DNA of 64,000 nucleotides, from NCBI GenBank assembly GCA_017654855.1, contig CM030338.1:1302001-1366000 (forward strand), in the 5' to 3' direction. Positions 4,510 to 32,104 of the stretch are shown one piece after another. The position numbers and the translations under genes are program-made. The stretch is from Podospora anserina (taxonomy: Eukaryota). Below the pieces are notes generated by a model. It was not told the origin of the DNA, did no database searches, and saw only the letters and a program-made list of their open reading frames with translations. Every line of letters begins with the position of its first letter. Positions within the stretch are counted from its first letter, which is position 1.

Positions 4510-4589
4510 AAGACATATACCATCCGTAAAGGCATAAACTCACCGTCGAAGACATATACCATCCGTAAAGGCATAAACTCACCGTCGAA
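4510..4589. repeat. Perfect 39-bp direct tandem duplication (2 copies)
   Basis: aagacatataccatccgtaaaggcataaactcaccgtcg occurs at 4510-4548 and again at 4549-4587; lies in the presumed 3' UTR of the 8071-4733 gene. Confidence 0.95.
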
Positions 4590-4732: not shown

Positions 4733-5298
4733 TTACCAATCCCCCAACCCAGCAATCCCCTCCTCCTCCTCCTCCTCCTCCTTCTTATCATCATCCCACC
4801 CACCATCATTCCCCCCTTTATCCCCCCCCTCTTTCTTCTTCCCATCATCACTCTTGTTCCCACCCGTAACATTGCTAGCAACAGCAGCAACTAATCCCCC
4901 CAACCCGCCCAGCCCCCACCCAAAACCCCCAAGTTTATTCCCCAACTTCACCCCGCCATCATCCTCCTTCCCAACAGGAGTAGGAGTCCTAAACTCCCCC
5001 TCTGCCTTTTCCTTCCCCTTATCCACCTTCTTTTTCTCAGGGGAGTTTGGCCCCGGTGTCTCGTTCCATGAGCCAGGCATGGACATCTCACTGTTGTTTG
5101 GTTTCTTCTTGTCCCACGGATTCGGATCGACGTTTTCGTTGTCCGAGTCGAACTGGTCTTGGGGTGAAGGTTGAAAGGTGAGTTTTTTGCGGGAGGATTT
5201 TTTGCTGGTGTTGGTTCCTGTGAGGGAGGCGGGTTTGGGGAAGGTGAAGGGGGAGGGGGGTTTAGAGGGGGGGTTGGGGTCGGGCCAGGTGTTGTTGC

Positions 5299-5353
<55 letters not shown>

Positions 5354-5501
5354 CTCGTTGCCCCAGCTGTTGTCATTGGAGGTATCATTGTTGTCACCCG
5401 AGTTGTTGTTGTCATCGTTGCCCCAACTGCCGCCGCCGTTGTTGTTGTTCTCAGCCGAGGTATCATTGTTATTGTTGTCGTTGCCCCAGCTGTTGTCGCC
5501 G

Positions 5502-5535
<34 letters not shown>

Positions 5536-8071
5536 CGTTGGAGGTATCGTTGTTGTCCCCAGAGGAGTTATTCTCATTACCCCAACCGCCACCCGCATTG
5601 TCATTGGAGGTATCGTTGTTATCCCCAGAGGTGTTGTTTTCGCTGCCCCAACTGTCGCCGCCGCCGTTGTTGTTGAAGGTATCATTGGAGTTGTCGTTGG
5701 AGTTGTCGTTGGAGTTGTCGTTAGAGTTGTCGTTGGAGTCATCATTTCCGTTGCCCCAACCCCCCCAACTGTTGTCATTGGAGTTTTCGTTGGAATTGTC
5801 GTTTCCGTTACCCCAGCCGCCACCGTTGTTGTCATTGTTGCCATCAGACCCGGCCTTGGTGCTCTCGGTGAACTGAACAGCAGGAGAGGCCGACCTGCCC
5901 TTCTTCCCTCCTTTCTTGTTCTTCCCTCCTTTGCTGTTACTTCCGCCCTGGTTGTTACCTCCGCCCTGGTTGTTACCTCTGCCCTGGTTGTTACTTCCGC
6001 CCTGGTTGTTACCTCCACCGTTGTTCCCTCCACCGCCCTTGTTGCCGCCAGAGCCAGAAGCCACATTCGGAGTTCCCTGCTGCGCCCTAGGTGTCCCCCG
6101 GCCCTGGCCCTGCCCCTGTGACGCCGAATCATTCGGCCATATCGGAGGCACAGCGTTCAACTGCCACGACCCCGGCATCTGCTGCCACTGCTGGTACCCA
6201 GCCATTCCCTGCGGAGTAAAGTTGTGAGGACCGTAAGCCCCAAGCTGCACGGGAGGCTGCATCACAGGCGGCGGAGGACCCTAGCCTCCCCACGCAGGAC
6301 CGCCAGGTTGATGGGACCAGTAGGGATTCGGGCAGTCTGTGTGGATGATGTTGGTCACAGGATGCACAACACCATCCCCGGCGTAGCCATAGTTCTGGAA
6401 CTGGGGGTGGATAGGAGCCGGCGGAAAGCCCGCAGGCACAGCGGGCTGCTGAGCTGGGCTGTCAAAGACTTGGACATGACCGTCTAGGTAGTAGGCGTTG
6501 CGCGGTGGTTGGACGGTGGCTGAGCGAGAGGGGACATGCTGGACGGTGGCTGATCCCTGGGCGTTGTTCGAAGACTGGTTGCCACCGTCGGGTTTCTGCT
6601 GATCAGACTTGTTCTGGTTTTGGCTGGTACCAGAGCTGTCGCCGGCAGCCTTCTTGTTGTTCTGGGGGTTATCCTGCTTGCCCCTGTCTCCCTTTTTATC
6701 GTCCTTCTTGCCCTCCTGCCTCTCGTCCTTCTTGTCCTCTTTCTTGCCCTCCTGTTTCTCGTCCTTCCTGGCATCCTTGTTCACACCCTTCTTGTCATCC
6801 TGCTTATCATCCTTTCCGTCCTTCTTTCCATCCTTCTTGCCCTTGTCATTCCCCGAAGAACCACCCTTCTTCTTCAGACAGTCTGTAAGCAGCGCCGCGG
6901 CTATCTCCTTTCTAGTTCGGGGCTTGCTCAACTCCCGGCCCAGGAGTCTCCGACCCTGAATGCAGTTCTCGCAGCCGCATGTGGCATGGGGCTCCAGATC
7001 GGGGGTGACAAAGTCGTCAGGAGCGCCCGCGTCTTGCTTCTTCGTGTTGTGCTGGCCCGACTTGTTGTCTTTTGACTTGTCCTCGGTCTTATTGTCATCA
7101 GCCTTCTTCTTGTCCTCTGCTTTCTTGTTGCCCTCGACCTTCTTCTCCGCCTCCATGGTCTTGCTGGACTCACCCTTCTCGTCAGGCTCGGGAGGGGCCA
7201 GCTTAGCCTCGGCCGGCGTCTTGCTGCTCTGAAGCGGCACCTTTGCGACAAAAGTCTCGCCCTCGCCGTCGCTGCCCGTATAGACCTCAACCTGAAATTT
7301 CGGCTTCTTGGCTGTGGTGTTGACAGGTTTCTCCGTCTCTTGAGTCTTCCTGACCTCCTTGGGTTTGGCAGAGTCAGCCTTCTTCTCCTCCTTTGACGGA
7401 GATGACCTGGGATCGCTCGGTTTGCCCTTTGTTTGTTGTTGCTTGTAAGCCTTGGAAACTGCCAACGCTATAGCCATGGCGCGCTCCTCCTCGTCTGAGT
7501 CAACGTCTGAAAAGATCTCGGAAAGTCGCTTGGTCGTGGCCGCCTCGATCTCTGCCTTCCTCTTGGCCTCCTCTTCTTTCGCTTTCTCTTTGGCCACCTT
7601 CCTGTCTTGAGCAGCGTGAACCGTAGCAATTGTTCTAGCCTCAGCTCGGGCAATGGCAACACTAGCCTTTTTAAGTGCGGCGGCAGCGGCAGCAGTAGCC
7701 TCGATGTCGACGGAAGCCGTCTCGGCTTGGGCAGCTTGGGCGGCTCTTGCTTTGTGACAACTCTTGTGCTCTCGAGGATGACGGGACTCGCCATGCTCGC
7801 GGTGCTCGTGGTGCTCGTGGTGCTCACTGACTCGATGCCTGGTGGGCGGCTGAGCAGTAGTCGAACCTTGTCGATCGTAGTATCTGTCTCGGGATGGGGA
7901 CCGATGCCTAGAGGGGGGCCGGGGTCTAGAATCGCGGCGCCTGGAATCTCTGCCTCTGTACTCTTTCTCCTCTGATCTCCGTCTCTCCGGCTCGGGTGTT
8001 GTCAGTCTCTCCTTTTCGGTGCGAGTGAGATTGCGGCCCATAATCCACTCCATCATGGTATTGGGAGGCAT
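4733..8071 (-). CDS. Low-complexity protein of about 1112 aa interrupted by one in-frame TAG (6283-6281); candidate editing-corrected premature-stop gene. Charged N-terminal half with UIM-like and CxCxxC motifs, N/G-rich WG-repeat C-terminal half
   Basis: ORFs 6281..8071 and 4733..6265 are in the same frame, joined by ...TGG GGA GGC TAG GGT CCT CCG CCG CCT GTG ATG... (PAWGG*GPPPPVMQPP). No convincing GTRAGT donor or CTRAC branch point flanks the TAG. Final stop is TAA at 4735-4733. Confidence 0.8.
5289..5352. repeat. (GTT)n microsatellite encoding poly-Asn on the minus strand; second tract near 5500-5533
   Basis: Long gttgttgtt run, in frame as AAC codons in the 8071-4733 gene. Confidence 0.95.
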
Positions 8072-8929
8072 GGCTGCGGTCAGCGAGTCGCAGCGAGCAG
8101 TGCGACTTTGGTGATGTTGGAGACAAAAGGAAAAGTCAAAAAACGACTATCAATCTCCTGAAGTGATAGTGACGGAACGGAAACAGACTGGTAGCGGTGT
8201 TGAAGGGCGAAGAACAAGGAAAGAATCGAGAAGGAGCCTCTCGATCCGAGCGGGTGTTTGGAGAAAAGGAAACAAGTCGGGGAGGGGCCAACGGCCCTGA
8301 GTGAAGAGGAGAGAACGACGAGAGGGGAAATACTTGGCCTGGTGTCGAACAGTAACCAGAGATGAAAGTAGCCGCAGAAAGCAATTTGCTGTGAAGGAGA
8401 GTATGCGCTGAAAACTGTAGTCGCAAGGTAGGAAGAAGCTTTGTATTTGCAGGAAGAATTGGCTATTACAGCAAAGTCGGTGGTGGGGGGTGGAAGGGAG
8501 ATTTTTGCAAGAAAGGCGGGTCTCGTTGCTGGAAATTCACTTGAGATGGAAAGGTAAGGGAGCAAGTCGAGTGTTTGAGGAAGTCGCTCAGAAGGTCGTG
8601 GGTCTGCCCGTAGTTCTCATGTCGTCGACTGATGCCCTGCAGTTTGAGGCTCAATGGAGATGCCCCATGGCCCGTGTCAGTCGACATCTGCCATTGAGAT
8701 TCCCGTCGAGTCTCTCTCACTGACTCGAAGCCTCCCATTCCTCGTCGAAACCACGCAGTTTGAGGCCCCGTTCAACCACAAGTAACCAACACAAACAAGA
8801 CCTTCGAGACAAAGAGACGCAGAAAAGAAAGAAAATACATTAACCCATCAACCCTTATGTATCTCACAAGTTCAAAGCTCTCATCATGTACCGTGTTCCA
8901 TAGTCCCGACTCATCTTCATCACCACCAA

Positions 8930-9745
8930 CTACAGCTTAGCCCTCTCCCTCCTCTCCCTCTCCTCCCACTCCCTCTCCCCCCTCCAATTCCTCCACAACC
9001 CCCACCCCCCAACAACCAACGCCAACGGAGGACAAACCCACAAAACCCACCCCCACCACCTCGGGCTCCCCCTCTCCACCTCCTCCATAACCCTCCTCAA
9101 CTCCCTCTTCAGATCGTCCTTATCCCCATCATTCCAAACCACCACCCCCCCACCAAAAGCCGCCCTCTCAACCTTTTTCATCACCCCCCCCTGACTCCTA
9201 ACCCGATTCTCCGCATCCTCCCTGCTCAAATGCCCATCCCGCCTCATCAACCTCTCCATCTGAACCTCCTCATCCCTCACCCCAACAACCATAACCCGTC
9301 CCACATACCGATCAAGCTTACTCTCAAACAACAACGGCACATCCAACACCACCGCCCTTTTCCCTTTGACATACTCCCTCACCACAGCCCAAAACATGGC
9401 CTTCCTCACAGCAGGGTGCACAATCCCGTTCAGCACCCCCCTGTCCTTCGCCCTCTCCAGACTAGTACCGAAAACCCTCTTCCCGAGCGCAGGTCGGTTC
9501 AACGGGCGGCCTTTTCCGTTTGGTCCATTCTCCGGCATGTCCTCTGACACAGGGACGAGTAAGTCGGGTGTGCTGGGGAGGAAGTGCTTCACAATGGCAT
9601 TGTAACCCGGCGTGCCCGGCTCGACGACCTGGCGGGCGATCAGGTCGGCGTCGATGATGGGGAGGTTGTAGGGTGGCTGCGATAAAAGGGAGGAAACGGT
9701 TGATTTGCCCGTGGCTATCGAGCCTGTGAGGCCTATGAGCAGCAT
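8930..9745 (-). CDS. CAB5: Dephospho-CoA kinase (CoaE family) with C-terminal hydrophobic segment
   Basis: MLLIGLTGSIATGKSTVS P-loop, IIDADLIARQVV, LNGIVHPAV, VVLDVPLLFES; ATG at 9745 in AAAAATG context. Confidence 0.93.
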   Translation of the reverse strand: MLLIGLTGSIATGKSTVSSLLSQPPYNLPIIDADLIARQVVEPGTPGYNAIVKHFLPSTPDLLVPVSEDMPENGPNGKGRPLNRPALGKRVFGTSLERAKDRGVLNGIVHPAVRKAMFWAVVREYVKGKRAVVLDVPLLFESKLDRYVGRVMVVGVRDEEVQMERLMRRDGHLSREDAENRVRSQGGVMKKVERAAFGGGVVVWNDGDKDDLKRELRRVMEEVERGSPRWWGWVLWVCPPLALVVGGWGLWRNWRGEREWEERERRERAKL

Positions 9746-17800: not shown

Positions 17801-19878
17801 GTTACTTGGCCAGAACGCTGCATCTTGCTTCAACCAGTCTGAAGTCTGAAGTGTAAGTTCGTCGAAATAGGCCGTGAATATGAAGATAGCAAAACTGACA
17901 AGAGGTTAGCTGGGCAATCCGCAACTGTGGCCTTCTCCTTCTGAGAGCGCTCATAGATTGTCTGCTCGGCACCGGCGAGAGCAAGGCCATCATTGAATCT
18001 GGTTGGGACGGCAACTCTGTTCGTATCTCGTACAACAAGTATCCGGAACTACCAGATATCATTCTCGGCCTTCTTGAAGCAGACGATGTCGACGCGGGGC
18101 TGGCCAACTCTGCCGCTGCGGAAGCGGTATTCCCCGCTCTTGACATCATTCGTCGTGCTGGCCCTCCAGAGGAGCACAGAGGCGAGCTGCGGAGGCGCAT
18201 TGAAAACTATCTCGGCAGCAAGGTTTGGCACGTTCGTGAGATTGCTGCCAGAACCCTCTGCTCCTTCTTGTTGAGAGAGGATTGGGTGTCTGAGATTGGC
18301 AAGCTTCTTGAGCAAGCCGGCACTTCGTCCAATCGGCTCCATGGCGCTCTTCTCACAGCGAGATTTGTTATTGAACGCAAGTCAGACTTGGGCAGTGACC
18401 TAAAGACAGAAAATGCTTGGGCAGAGTCTCTTGTGGAGATTCTTGCTACCAAAAGCAAGGTCTTTGGACGCTGCCCAGAGGTGGAAGCGGGTTATCTTGA
18501 GATTCTCAATCTGCTCATCAAGCTTCAATGTCTGACCACAGACAAGCTGGCTTCCACTCTCCAGATCTCAACCAAGACCGGGAGCCCAGCTTCGGCGCTG
18601 TTGGAGATGGAGATTGCTCTCGGACTAGTCCACGAAACAGCTTCGTCCGGTGACGTTGCCGGTCTCCGCAACTACCTTGTCGAGCTGCTAGCTAGAGATG
18701 TCAACGTCGCCAGCCGAATGCTCGAAGCCATTCCAGCTGCCTTCTCCCAGGCACAGGATGACAACTCCAGGGTCCGGTCAGAGATTTGCCAGTTGTGTGT
18801 TGAGGTCTGCAGCACTTCACCTGCCCCTGAGGTCCGCGCGGTGTCACTCGCCAACCTCGGGGCGCTGATGTCGGCCATGCTCTCCAACGGTCATACTTCC
18901 GAATTGCCCTCCCTGTCCCAGCTCGACACCCTCTGGTCAGACCTCCCAAAGTGGTCCATCAACCCAGAGCTATCTTGGGCCATCACCGAAACAAGCGGCA
19001 CAATAATGGCCATTCTCGCCTCTTGCCACAGAGACAACCTCCCAGACTTGGACGAAAGACTCCGTAACTGGGGTGCTCTGATTTCAGATTCTCTGCACGT
19101 CGACAATGTAAGTCCCCTTTCCCCCATCCCCTTTCTCATCACCCACTAACTGTGTGCCCCAAAGTCATTCGACACCCGCCACGCCGCCGCTTTCTCTCTG
19201 CACACCTTTTTTTCCCTCATCCCCGCCCCCCTTTTCCGAACCGCGTACCTGCCGGCCTTTTCAGCCCTCTACACAGCCCTAACAGACGACGACGACGAAA
19301 TCCGCGAGGTTGCCGCGCTCGCGGTGTCCAGTCTCACGGCCCAACCGGCAACAGCAAATATCTCGTCCAAAACCCTTGTTACCTCCCTCCTCCCTTCTCA
19401 CCTCCCCACTCCAGAGTTTTTTTCCCTTGCCATCTCCCATTTAACCTCTGGTAACCTCCCAGCGGAAACAAAACTCGGCAAGGCGCTCGACTTTGACGAC
19501 GCGTTATTCGCAGCAGAGGAGCAGAATTTGTTTGTTGACGAGGTTAGAGAGGCGAGGGAGTGGAGGAGGGGGTTGGTGGGTGCTATTGAGGCTAACAAAA
19601 ATGGGGAGAGGGTTTTGAAAGAGTGGAAGGAGTGGACTGTGCAGGGGCTGAAGGCGGTGGTGAAGGTGATGAAGGAAAAAAGAGAGGATGGACCGTTGGG
19701 GTGGACGAGCGATCAAAAGGTTTTTGCTGTTGTGGCTCGGGTTTTGATCTCTGCGAGGGGGGTGCTGGCTGTTGATGAGGGGGAGGAGGTGGAGGTGTTG
19801 TTGGGTGAGGTGGTCGAGATGGGGAGGGGGGGGTTGTTGCATGGGGGTTTGGTGGGGTTGGCCTTGGAGGAGGTTTGA
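14894..19878 (+). CDS. TRM732: THADA/Trm732-like armadillo-repeat protein (DUF2428), tRNA 2'-O-methylation cofactor; about 7 exons
   Basis: LRHRGAFS, TTRRSAGIP, PQVHALNCLREIF, WAIRNCGLLL motifs; exons joined by introns near 15019, 16917-16969 (GC-AG), about 17201, 17494-17547, about 17853 and about 19108. Confidence 0.88.
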
Positions 19879-20490: not shown

Positions 20491-23400
20491 TCACTTCATA
20501 CTCTGCCTCCCCCCCTTCTTCCCCCTCGTAGCATTAGCAACCGGCTCAGCCACCACCTCAGCCACCACCGCAGCAGCAGCAGCAGCCTCCTTCTTCTTGG
20601 TCGGCTTCCTCGACCTCGCCGGCGGCGGCTCAAGACTGTGCAAGTGCCCAATCTCTTCCATCGCCGTCGTGTTCGTCCAGTTCAGACACCTATACTTTGG
20701 CTTCTCCTTCTCCTCCTCCTCCTCCTCCTCCTCAACCGGCGCGGCAGGAACCGAGTGCCTGACCCGCGTGCTCCTCTTTCCCTTGTGAGGTTCCGGAGAC
20801 ACCTCCTTGACAGAGGCGGTCTCCTCTTCCTTCTTTTCTGTGGCGCCATTGGTGACAGACTCCTCTGTTGGGGCGGCGGTAGCGGCGGGGGTGTCGTCGA
20901 TGCCGAGGTATTTCCTCCTGTTGACCATGTTTTTCGCAATCTTGTCGCGGTAGTTGACCAGTTCCTTGCGGAGCTTCAGCTCGTTGACGCCACGGGGGTC
21001 GAGCCAGGTGAGAAGCTTGTCGACGTCCTCCTCCCGGTCGTAGTAGCCCCACTGATGGGCGTTGAAGACGCTGGTCTTGCCTTCTTCGAGCTTCTTCCGC
21101 TCTGGGACCGTCATCTCAAACTTGGCCTTGTACTCCTCCTGATACTCCTCCTTTGTGTCGATGTAACCCTCCCTCTCCAGCTCATCCGGCCCCTGCACCC
21201 AAATGCAACCGTTGGCGTACTCCGCCTCGGCTGTCGAGCTGTCTGGCAGACCACCATACGGCATGCCGTTTCTCTCGAACCAGTAGTATCGGTTCCAAAA
21301 CCTGTCCTTGCCCAGGACTCTGGTTCTGGGACAGTCGGCCTCCCGGAGGTCATTGTCGATGATGGCAATCTCCTTTTCGCACTCGGCAATGTCGTCCTCT
21401 TTCTTTTGAATGTCTCTGAGGACCTTGGTGAACTGTTTGGACTGCTTAGGGACCTTGGCAGCGGCCTCGGCCTTTTCCTTGCGCTCGGCTTCCTTTTCGG
21501 CTTTGCGCTTGCGCTCAACGGCACGGTCGTGCCCCCGCCGGAGCTTCCGGCCATCCTCTTCAGAGTCTGGAATCTCGTCAGATGTGTGGTTAGCTTGGAG
21601 GTCATCAACATCAGTCATCTTGACGTCTCCATTTATGATGGCGACCTTGGTAGGCTCCAGAGGTGGGCTTGGCGGGAGGTTATCTGGAAGGAGGATCTTG
21701 CGCTGATCATTCAGACTCTTCAACTCCTCGATTCTGCAAAGATGTTAGTGATCCAGTCTCCATGTCAGACATCTCCGAACCACTCACAGTTGTTTCCTCT
21801 TCCTCTGCCACTCAATCTTTTCCTTTCGGTAGGCAGTCATGGTCTCGCTGCAGTCCTCCATGTACCCACGGATGGCCCTCGTCTCAGCAGTCAGCATGCA
21901 AATAATCTGCAGCGCCTGCACCCGATAGTTGACATCAAGTGTGGCATATTTCCGCCGAACCGTCTCCCGGCTGGGCTCGATGTCGACTGGAACCAACTGC
22001 TCCAAGAGCTCTTCACAGCTAGCCTTGAGCCGCTCGCTCTTAGACAGCTGGTGCAAAAGCCCCACCATGATGAGCTCCCAACCGCCATCCTTGAAGCTGC
22101 GTTTCCTCAGCTGCTCGATCCAGTCAAAGCCCTGAAGCACCTCTTCGGCACGGTGCCCCGGCGCATCTTCCATCTCCGCCTCTTCTTGCTCTGCCGCCGC
22201 GAGTTCTGCCGCAAGCCGCTCCGCCTCCAACTTGGCCATGCTGCTTCTGGTGGCCCGCCCGGATGGCTGGGGCTCTGGTTCCGGAGTCGGTGCCGCACTC
22301 TCTTCCGGCTCCTCTTCCTCTTCCTCCTCTTCGAGCTCTGGGAGCTGGATCTGGACTTTGCCACCCTCCGCCTCAGAGCTCACCAAGATCTTGAGGACGG
22401 AGCAGTGAATCTCTGTGAAAAGCTCGACTGGCACCTCTTCCGAGGCAACAAGCATGGCTTCCACATAGTCATCAAATGTGAAGGAGTCGAGCTTGAAAAT
22501 TTCGCAGTACACGTTCAGAGTGTCCCAAGTCTCCAACAACGGGCCAACACTCTTCATGAGAATCTTCTCGCTGAAGGGAGATTTGGACTCGGCATCCACT
22601 TCGACGGGAGTGTCTTTGCACATAAACTTTAGTTGTGGCCTCACATGGCCCCTGATGTTCAGCTGCAGGTCCTCGATGGGATACTTTGGTGGAGGTGGGG
22701 GCGGTGGCGGCTCGGGCGTTTGCGGTACCATTGGTGGTGGAATCTGACCGCGGAAGGATATCGGAAACTGGAACGGATTCCCAGGAAGTGGCAAATGCAT
22801 AAACTGGCCAGGCTCGTGCGTGTTGCCGTTGGCTTGCATCGCCTGCTGCTTGGCCCTAAGAAGAGCACGCTCTGCCTGGGCAGCCTGCTGAGCTTTGGAT
22901 TTGTGACTTTTGGGCGCCGGCTTCAGCTCGGGCAATCGAACGGGACCGGTAGGGCTAATCGATCCCGACAGCAAGCTCGAGTCATGGTTCGACATTCTTT
23001 TCTGCGCCTGGAGCTGCTTGCGCTCCTGGAGCTTGGTGTCGAAGCGCAGGTGGGCCGGTACGCGCGTGTCGATGTGGTATTTCTCGGCGACCTCGTCCTT
23101 GACCAGCCAAGGCGCCCCATTCCAAGCTTCTCTCGTGACTGTCTTCTTGATGTACTGGCGCAGTACCTGCTTTGTGAAGATTTTGCGATCCCGAAATATA
23201 TGCGCATCGTCGACGACCGCCTCCTCGGCAGGCGACATGGTCAGACTGACAAAGTAGGTCGCAAAGGGTTTTGACAATGTCCCATCAGGAAGCATTTTGC
23301 CACCAAAACGGGTCTTGTCCCTGACAATACCAGCGAGCTTCTCGGTGTGGCCTATAACTTCCACCAACACGGCCTCGCCGGGATAATAGTCGTTTTTGAA

Positions 23401-32031: not shown

Positions 32032-32104
32032 TGACCGACCCAGGGATCGAACCTGGCACCTTTTGTGTGTGAGACAAACGTGATAACCACTACACCAGCC
32101 GGCC
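32032..32104 (-). tRNA. tRNA-Val(CAC), intronless
   Basis: GGCCGGC TGGTGTAGTGGTTATCAC G TTTGT CT-CAC-AC ACAAA AGGTG CCAGG TTCGATC CCTGG GTCGGTC A; 73-nt cloverleaf with A and B boxes. Confidence 0.95.

Follow-up and report, generated by a model that had tools for sequence, protein, structure and literature searches.

A gene on the minus strand of a 64-kb window of the Podospora anserina genome (contig CM030338.1, positions 1,302,001 to 1,366,000; all coordinates below are positions in this window) is split by a single in-frame TAG. We tentatively suggest that it is a premature-stop-correction (PSC) gene, in which editing of the UAG restores the full-length protein, a reading that we regard as quite possible without calling it probable. 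The TAG itself is unchanged in contigs of four public sequencing runs, and the open reading frames (ORFs) at its two sides are read as one gene. What we infer, by analogy with PSC genes of other fungi, is the editing, the developmental stage to which it would be tied and the two forms of the protein that would follow from it.

A single TAG in an otherwise open frame

The upstream part of the gene is an ATG-started ORF of 596 codons at 8071..6284, as given by the ORF translation, and it is closed by the TAG at 6283-6281. Past this TAG the frame is open again from 6280 to 4736, for 515 sense codons, and ends with a TAA at 4735-4733. When the TAG is read as a residue, a read-through protein of 1112 residues is obtained, in which the TAG (codon 597) is the sole internal stop. 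From the TAG to the following ATG, at 6262, there are six sense codons (GGT CCT CCG CCG CCT GTG), which makes a gap of 18 nt, and the ORF started by this ATG is 509 aa long. A preliminary description of the locus had reported two ORFs in one frame parted by a TAG, and both the translation and the stop counts bear this out. Its spacing is to be corrected from five to six sense codons and the length of its second ORF from 510 to 509 aa, while the separation by a TAG stands. The string WGGWG, which it said recurs downstream, is present at residues 769-773.

Over the 1112 codons the frame of the gene contains one stop, and the other five frames contain 13, 68, 13, 26 and 33. Past the TAG it contains none in 515 codons, with 4 and 42 in the other two frames of the same strand. 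The GC content at third codon positions (GC3) is similar in both halves, 0.67 before the TAG and 0.70 after it. The downstream half shows neither a stop nor a frameshift across 1545 nt, although slippage-prone tandem repeats are included. Pairs of open stretches of at least 200 codons that share a frame and are split by one stop are found at 3 places in the 64-kb window. The split frame is more than a chance product of composition alone.

The features of the gene are the following.

8072..8293, minus strand: probable 5′ untranslated region (UTR), from the weak hint of one contig end in run X17, itself only guessed to be RNA
6284..8071, minus strand: upstream part, 596 codons rich in K, A, E and D, with predicted helices and disorder (ORF translation; AlphaFold2 model)
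6941..7003, minus strand: Cys motif PDLEPHATCGCENCIQGRRLL, residues 357-377, of the form H-x2-C-x-C-x2-C (BLASTP, E 7e-08; invariant alignment columns)
6270..6296, minus strand: candidate local hairpin with the A of the UAG in the loop GGCUAGGG (27-nt minimum-free-energy (MFE) fold, -11 kcal/mol, z -0.70)
6281..6283, minus strand: in-frame TAG, codon 597 (unchanged in bridging contigs of runs X1, X15, X17 and X19)
4733..6280, minus strand: downstream part, 515 sense codons and TAA (ORF translation, composition)
5363..5815, minus strand: [G/S]WG[N/S] repeat block rich in N, D, S and G, residues 753-903, overlapping tandem DNA repeats
5045..5080, minus strand: motif MPGSWNETPGPN, residues 998-1009, identical at 10 of 12 positions to residues 703-714 of the homologue P0013 (shuffle test)

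About 150 bp past the TAA of the gene, the probable 3′ UTR contains a perfect tandem duplication of 39 bp at 4510-4589, in 2.1 copies with 100% matches.

The TAG is kept in the majority form

In 20 of the 24 listed public runs, half or more of the words sampled from 4733-8071 are present. The word content of this region is 0.99 in 14 DNA-like runs and 0.75-0.92 in six runs guessed to be RNA (X15-X20). Contigs of four runs from four studies were placed on 6050-8400, namely those of X1, which is DNA-like, and of X15, X17 and X19, which are guessed RNA. Such contigs, from runs of unspecified tissue, show the majority form only. Some of the runs are perhaps from the same strain as the window, so the letters shared among them say little about population frequency.

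In X1, X15 and X19 a single contig spans the whole of 6050-8400 and bridges the TAG, with 0 other letters, 0 gaps and no joint. X17 is represented by four pieces up to 8293, one of which covers 6050-7161; positions 7828-7844 and 8341-8400 are uncovered, and here also there are 0 other letters, 0 gaps and no joint. X15 and X19 add up to 26-28 million contig letters and the DNA-like runs to 36-39 million, even though the local depth of the former two is 63 and 35. We guess that these two runs are of RNA origin, because whole-genome DNA at such depth would give more contig letters. The end of one X17 contig at 8293, where it continues into sequencing-adapter letters, is a weak hint of the transcript 5′ end. 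Calculated from record lengths, the X15 contig stops at about 8930 and the X19 contig at about 8883, close to the stop codon of the adjoining gene cab5, and that of the DNA-like X1 reaches about 14543. This may weakly hint at a transcript boundary.

In all three guessed-RNA runs the majority form retains the TAG, and the gene is intronless at least over 6050-8293. An assembly slip or a majority-spliced intron is unlikely, because the contigs of four runs bridge the TAG unchanged. Near the TAG we found neither a donor of the GTRNGT type nor a branch site CTRAC, unlike in the intron at 19108-19164 of the same window. What could pass for an intron to a gene predictor is the 90-nt in-frame interval GTTGTG...CTAG (6370..6281). 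This mini-intron ending at CTAG was rejected, as it is devoid of donor and branch signals and no joint is seen in the contigs. Hence an artefact at this place, whether a wrong letter at 6282 from sequencing or assembly or an overlooked intron that takes out the TAG, is in our view extremely improbable and largely refuted: the contigs from four studies are letter-identical over 6050-8400 (X17 to 8293, with its gap), with the reservation that RNA is guessed for X15, X17 and X19 and that strains are perhaps shared with the window. The preliminary description had seen no donor or branch point that would remove the TAG and had named an assembly error or an intron as possible objections; with the stop unchanged and unspliced in all four runs, its view is sustained.

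The two frames are best read as one gene

An HMMER pass with the read-through protein over 1.84 billion representatives (E up to 0.001) gave 3 matches, and the sole clear relative among them is P0013, a hypothetical protein of 827 aa from the Sordariomycete Thozetella sp. PMI_491, encoded in one continuous ORF. In BLASTP the upstream ORF matches residues 1-22 of P0013 with E 1e-04 (MPPNxxxEW...), and its residues 352-595 match residues 130-356 with E 7e-08, centred on PDLxPHxTCxCxxCIxGR. The Cys motif PDLEPHATCGCENCIQGRRLL is the best-conserved stretch common to the two proteins. Judged by these alignments, the N-terminal halves are homologous.

The other 471 residues of P0013 lead from a P/Q-rich stretch to a G/N/S-rich region rich in GW/WG, as does the part of the window gene after the TAG. 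There are 15 Trp in the tail of P0013 (11 adjoining Gly) versus 17 in that of the window gene (10 adjoining Gly), and the N-terminal parts contain only 2 and 3. The motif MPGSWNxTPGxN is common to both tails at a similar relative position with 10 of 12 residues identical, a number reached by 2-3 of 300 shuffles. Both P0013 and the read-through protein have a C-terminal Trp. The best ungapped score of the tail with P0013 is 164, versus 90.5 +/- 12 for 200 global shuffles, none of which reaches 164; this shuffle ignores local composition. On the basis of these comparisons, the homology of the C-terminal tails is likely, though not proven.

By far the best reading of the two ORFs is that they are one gene, because the gap between them is 18 nt, the distant homologue is continuous and the contigs bridge the TAG. 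The same grounds uphold the preliminary description, which had taken them for a single gene rather than two. Two independent genes were ruled out, since the 18-nt gap has no room for a terminator and a promoter. P0013 carries its tail in a continuous ORF, and thus the TAG more probably arose as a later interruption than marks where the gene first ended.

Both halves could also be translated without editing, either by low-level read-through of the UAG or from a separate start at AUG 6262 (internal transcript or reinitiation), the latter with proteins of 596 and 509 aa as the outcome. The ATG 18 nt past the TAG is in line with this, and the contigs are blind to transcript starts, which leaves room for an internal promoter. 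The single continuous ORF of P0013 argues against it, as does the lack of any break or loose end near 6262-6300 in the contigs of the four runs. Two points of general knowledge add to this: reinitiation after an ORF of 596 codons is inefficient in eukaryotes, and, to our knowledge, UAG-GGU is absent from the known read-through contexts. We therefore consider unedited translation of both halves improbable.

Predicted properties of the protein

The AlphaFold2 model of the upstream ORF, based on an alignment of 2 sequences, has a mean predicted local distance difference test (pLDDT) score of 53, and 375 of the 596 residues are below 50. Helices are modelled with confidence at residues 6-47, 103-187 (pLDDT 83-96) and 192-215, and two short helices follow the Cys motif. 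Directly before the stop, at residues 437-591 and 593-596, pLDDT is below 50. In the model the TAG sits in a disordered P/G/Q-rich linker, so the identity of the residue inserted there should matter little.

The 515 residues of the downstream part include 117 Asn, 93 Gly, 48 Ser and 44 Asp, and from this composition the tail is predicted to be disordered. The 1112-residue product would be mostly disordered, with a helical K/E-rich N-terminal half that contains the Cys motif and an N/G/S-rich C-terminal half studded with GW/WG.

Sequence context and RNA structure of the stop

The local sequence is GGA GGC TAG GGT CCT, and the mRNA reads C-U-A-G-G-G-U, with U at -1 and G at +1, +2 and +3 around the A of the stop, which is window position 6282 (T on the plus strand). 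Sites of adenosine-to-inosine (A-to-I) editing are described as having U at -1 in over 70% of cases and A or G at +1 and +3, and as favouring adenosines in hairpin loops, where editing levels are higher (PMC11156358). Both in their structure and in the bases preferred, such sites are also said to be like the tRNA A34 stem-loop (PMC11087585). As a matter of sequence, the flanks of the TAG (U at -1, G at +1 and G at +3) match the published preference. The preliminary description had called this context preferred, and the sequence agrees with it.

In the 27-nt fold the A of the UAG is placed in the hairpin loop GGCUAGGG at -11 kcal/mol, a stability that 50 of 200 shuffles reach too. With 13, 15, 20 or 30 nt of flanking sequence the A falls in a hairpin loop, and with 40, 50 or 60 nt it becomes a one-base bulge of a longer, imperfect helix. 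We conclude that the modelled RNA structure is compatible with editing but uninformative and does not single out the TAG site. In one hairpin register other than the MFE fold, a stem of 5 bp closes a loop of 7 nt, CUAGGGU, whose second and third bases are U-A, as they are in an anticodon loop; we give this register no weight.

Proposed mechanism and its weighing

We suggest the following sequence of events.

Step 1: The UAG at codon 597 is kept in the mature transcript, as nothing is spliced out around it in the majority form of the guessed-RNA runs.

Step 2: In vegetative cells translation would end at codon 597, and the 596-aa form would be made.

Step 3: In perithecia a deaminase of the Tad2/Tad3/Ame1 type would turn the A of the UAG into inosine in part of the transcripts.

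Step 4: The edited codon would be decoded as UGG (Trp), and translation would yield the full-length protein, GW-rich tail included.

From the preliminary description the single gene, the unspliced TAG and the favourable context are retained; its model of a truncated vegetative and a full-length sexual form is reasonable, but one that we, too, can only infer.

The explanation that has to be weighed most carefully beside editing is a plain nonsense allele. Here a point mutation, G-to-A or other, would have truncated an ancestrally long gene, the 596-aa protein would be the sole meaningful product or the gene would be dying, and the downstream frame would be open since the mutation is young and N/G-rich repeats rarely make stops. 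Editing, on this view, would be negligible or would not occur. We see in it a serious possibility, if a rather doubtful one.

Several observations weigh against editing or in favour of a nonsense allele. The low-complexity N/G-rich tail yields few stops regardless: another frame of the same strand holds an ATG-started ORF of 394 aa at 6132..4948, and frame +1 has only the 4 stops in 515 codons noted above, so openness alone is weak evidence. All contigs of the four runs read A at 6282; being majority forms, they can neither show nor exclude editing. None of the searches returned a protein model of the locus, and annotators may treat the gene as broken or skip it. The homology of the tail is argued from architecture, one short motif (about 1% of shuffles) and the global shuffle test, and in BLASTP with compositional adjustment the ORF after the TAG has no significant match with P0013 (best E 2.5). 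The P0013 residue aligned to the TAG codon, in a place where the alignment is poor, is not Trp, and an ancestral TGG is not shown by this loose alignment. The structure around the TAG is not distinctive: the z-scores of the folds relative to shuffles are -0.70, -0.04, +0.61 and +0.94 for 27, 43, 81 and 121 nt, none of them better than the shuffles, and nearly all of the 72 UA adenosines in this A-rich, U-poor mRNA are predicted to be unpaired (median 0.97-1.0). A young nonsense mutation is compatible with the data.

On the other side, a nonsense allele is opposed by zero stops and no frameshift over 1545 nt that include slippage-prone tandem repeats, and by a GC3 like that of the upstream half. 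The tail has also retained MPGSWNxTPGxN and the terminal Trp, both common to the distant homologue. Finally, the stop is a UAG in the favoured editing context, and not a UAA or UGA. It is with these points in mind that we tentatively prefer correction of the UAG by editing.

Possible role of the GW-rich tail

Proteins with GW/WG repeats of the ‘Ago-hook’ type, such as GW182/TNRC6, Tas3, NRPE1 and SPT5L, bind Argonaute. The tail of the window gene is similar to them in having many Trp flanked by Gly, Ser or Asn in a long region predicted to be disordered. However, no homology was found (0 Pfam families and 0 matches in PDB), and the likeness is compositional. A literature search for GW-repeat partners of Argonaute in Neurospora returned nothing relevant. 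As pure speculation, which we think very unlikely to be correct, the editing of the UAG could be a developmental switch that fuses an Ago-hook-like tail rich in GW/WG to a coiled-coil scaffold only in fruiting bodies, and so links mRNA editing to small-RNA silencing in meiotic tissue; the stop might then also explain the escape of the gene from public protein models.

Comparison with known editing systems

In Fusarium graminearum 71 PSC genes are reported (PMC11156358; PMC10776026). They include proteins with intrinsically disordered regions, and their TAG need not descend from TGG (PMC10776026). The window gene resembles the PSC genes of F. graminearum and Neurospora crassa, such as PUK1, AMD1, FgRID, FgAMA1 and FgBUD14 (PMC11156358, PMC10776026), in that a UAG is located inside an otherwise intact coding sequence of a Sordariomycete and is kept in the transcript. 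It also resembles them in the U at -1 and the purines at +1 and +3. Its protein matches no Pfam family and is predicted to be largely disordered, and intrinsically disordered regions occur in some PSC proteins too. The difference is that editing is demonstrated there, whereas the window gene is known from sequence and contigs.

A second class for comparison is the stop-loss editing of canonical UAG stops, reported from hundreds of F. graminearum and N. crassa genes (PMC11156358), with DBF2 as one case (PMC13123824). In common with these, a long C-terminal extension, of 515 residues, would be added. Unlike them, the window gene has a distant homologue, P0013, whose tail lies in one continuous ORF.

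Within the genus, RNA-seq signs of stop-codon editing are reported for the Podospora gene Uhera (PMC8092012). The Uhera ORF belongs to the Enterprise/Spok block, and like our gene it has an apparent stop inside the ORF. It differs in being a DEAD-like helicase in a giant transposon, with a stop that is conserved in homologues outside Podospora (PMC8092012). Differential expression of ADAT-type genes is described in a preprint on the sexual transcriptome of P. anserina (bioRxiv 10.1101/2024.12.09.627484), the available part of which holds no editing catalogue. Our literature search found no genome-wide catalogue of editing in Podospora, only the single-gene remark on stop-codon editing.

Searches for relatives and protein models

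In an exact look-up in the public protein collection, neither the 596-aa nor the 509-aa ORF was present. Homologue searches with residues 480-720 of the read-through protein, at near and at shorter lengths, gave no match; at shorter lengths only the top 8000 candidates by shared words were scored. When the alignment of the upstream ORF with P0013 was the query, again with scoring of the top 8000 candidates by shared words, there was no match, and P0013 itself was not recovered although its length fell inside the range covered. The blanks of these word-based searches are not evidence of absence. Pfam gave 0 families at E up to 1, the PDB sequences gave 0 matches for either the upstream or the downstream ORF, and ESM Atlas gave no usable match for the upstream ORF. 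Metagenome scans produced 440 pattern matches, 0 of which were confirmed by tblastn, and a pattern of 26 bases that surrounds the stop had no exact match there. All in all, no search, some of them word-limited, returned a protein model for this expressed-looking locus of about 3.3 kb.

The contigs of X1, X15 and X19 begin at about 5511 and the X17 piece at about 5529, inside an (AAC)13 repeat in the region 5501-5540. This trinucleotide repeat breaks short-read assemblies of the gene, and it may add to the absence of the gene from protein sets.

The remaining two HMMER matches, P0014 and P0015 (32 and 60 aa), correspond to residues 394-423 and 4-48 of the gene. They resemble a translation of the gene with C converted to T (P to F/L, T to I, R to C/W) and presumably stem from gene calling on bisulfite-type reads that had been assembled; calls of this sort contaminate protein collections.

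Neighbouring gene and other split frames

The adjoining ORF at 9745..8933 on the minus strand is a dephospho-CoA kinase, and its exact sequence is present in the public protein collection. Its 90% cluster contains cab5 of Podospora anserina S mat+ (PODANS_7_5290, chromosome 7) together with proteins of five other Podospora species, Cercophora samala and Apiosordaria backusii, which are 91-100% identical to the protein of the window. This assigns the window to the Podospora anserina species complex (Sordariales). A literature search on the gene numbers of the neighbouring genes found no paper.

A long plus-strand frame of 416 + 242 codons is interrupted at 19147-19149 by a TAA that belongs to a short intron of canonical form, 19108-19164 (GTAAGT...CTAAC...AG). 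By these signals the split at 19147 is an ordinary in-frame intron, in contrast to the TAG at 6281-6283. Another TAG, at 22630-22632 on the plus strand, parts open stretches of 729 and 213 codons in one frame, in the context AAACTTTAGTTG. No obvious donor was seen in the 90 bases upstream of it, and it may be a gene end or an intron acceptor. The sole tRNA gene in the window is that of tRNA-Val (anticodon CAC) at 32032-32104 on the minus strand.

Implications

If the UAG is unedited, the locus carries an ordinary nonsense allele of recent origin, in a disordered protein that evolves fast. If it is edited, the gene would be a concrete case of stop correction in Podospora anserina, a model fungus for genetics that is easily crossed. 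Alleles with TAG, TGG and TAA could then probe the idea of a ‘survival versus reproduction trade-off’ outside Fusarium. PSC editing as such is already established; with confirmation, this would be a new PSC gene in a species where such editing is barely described, possibly with the twist that the restored part is a GW-rich tail. Since no search returned a protein model for an expressed-looking gene of this size, we suggest that genes of such a kind may be systematically missing from fungal proteomes.

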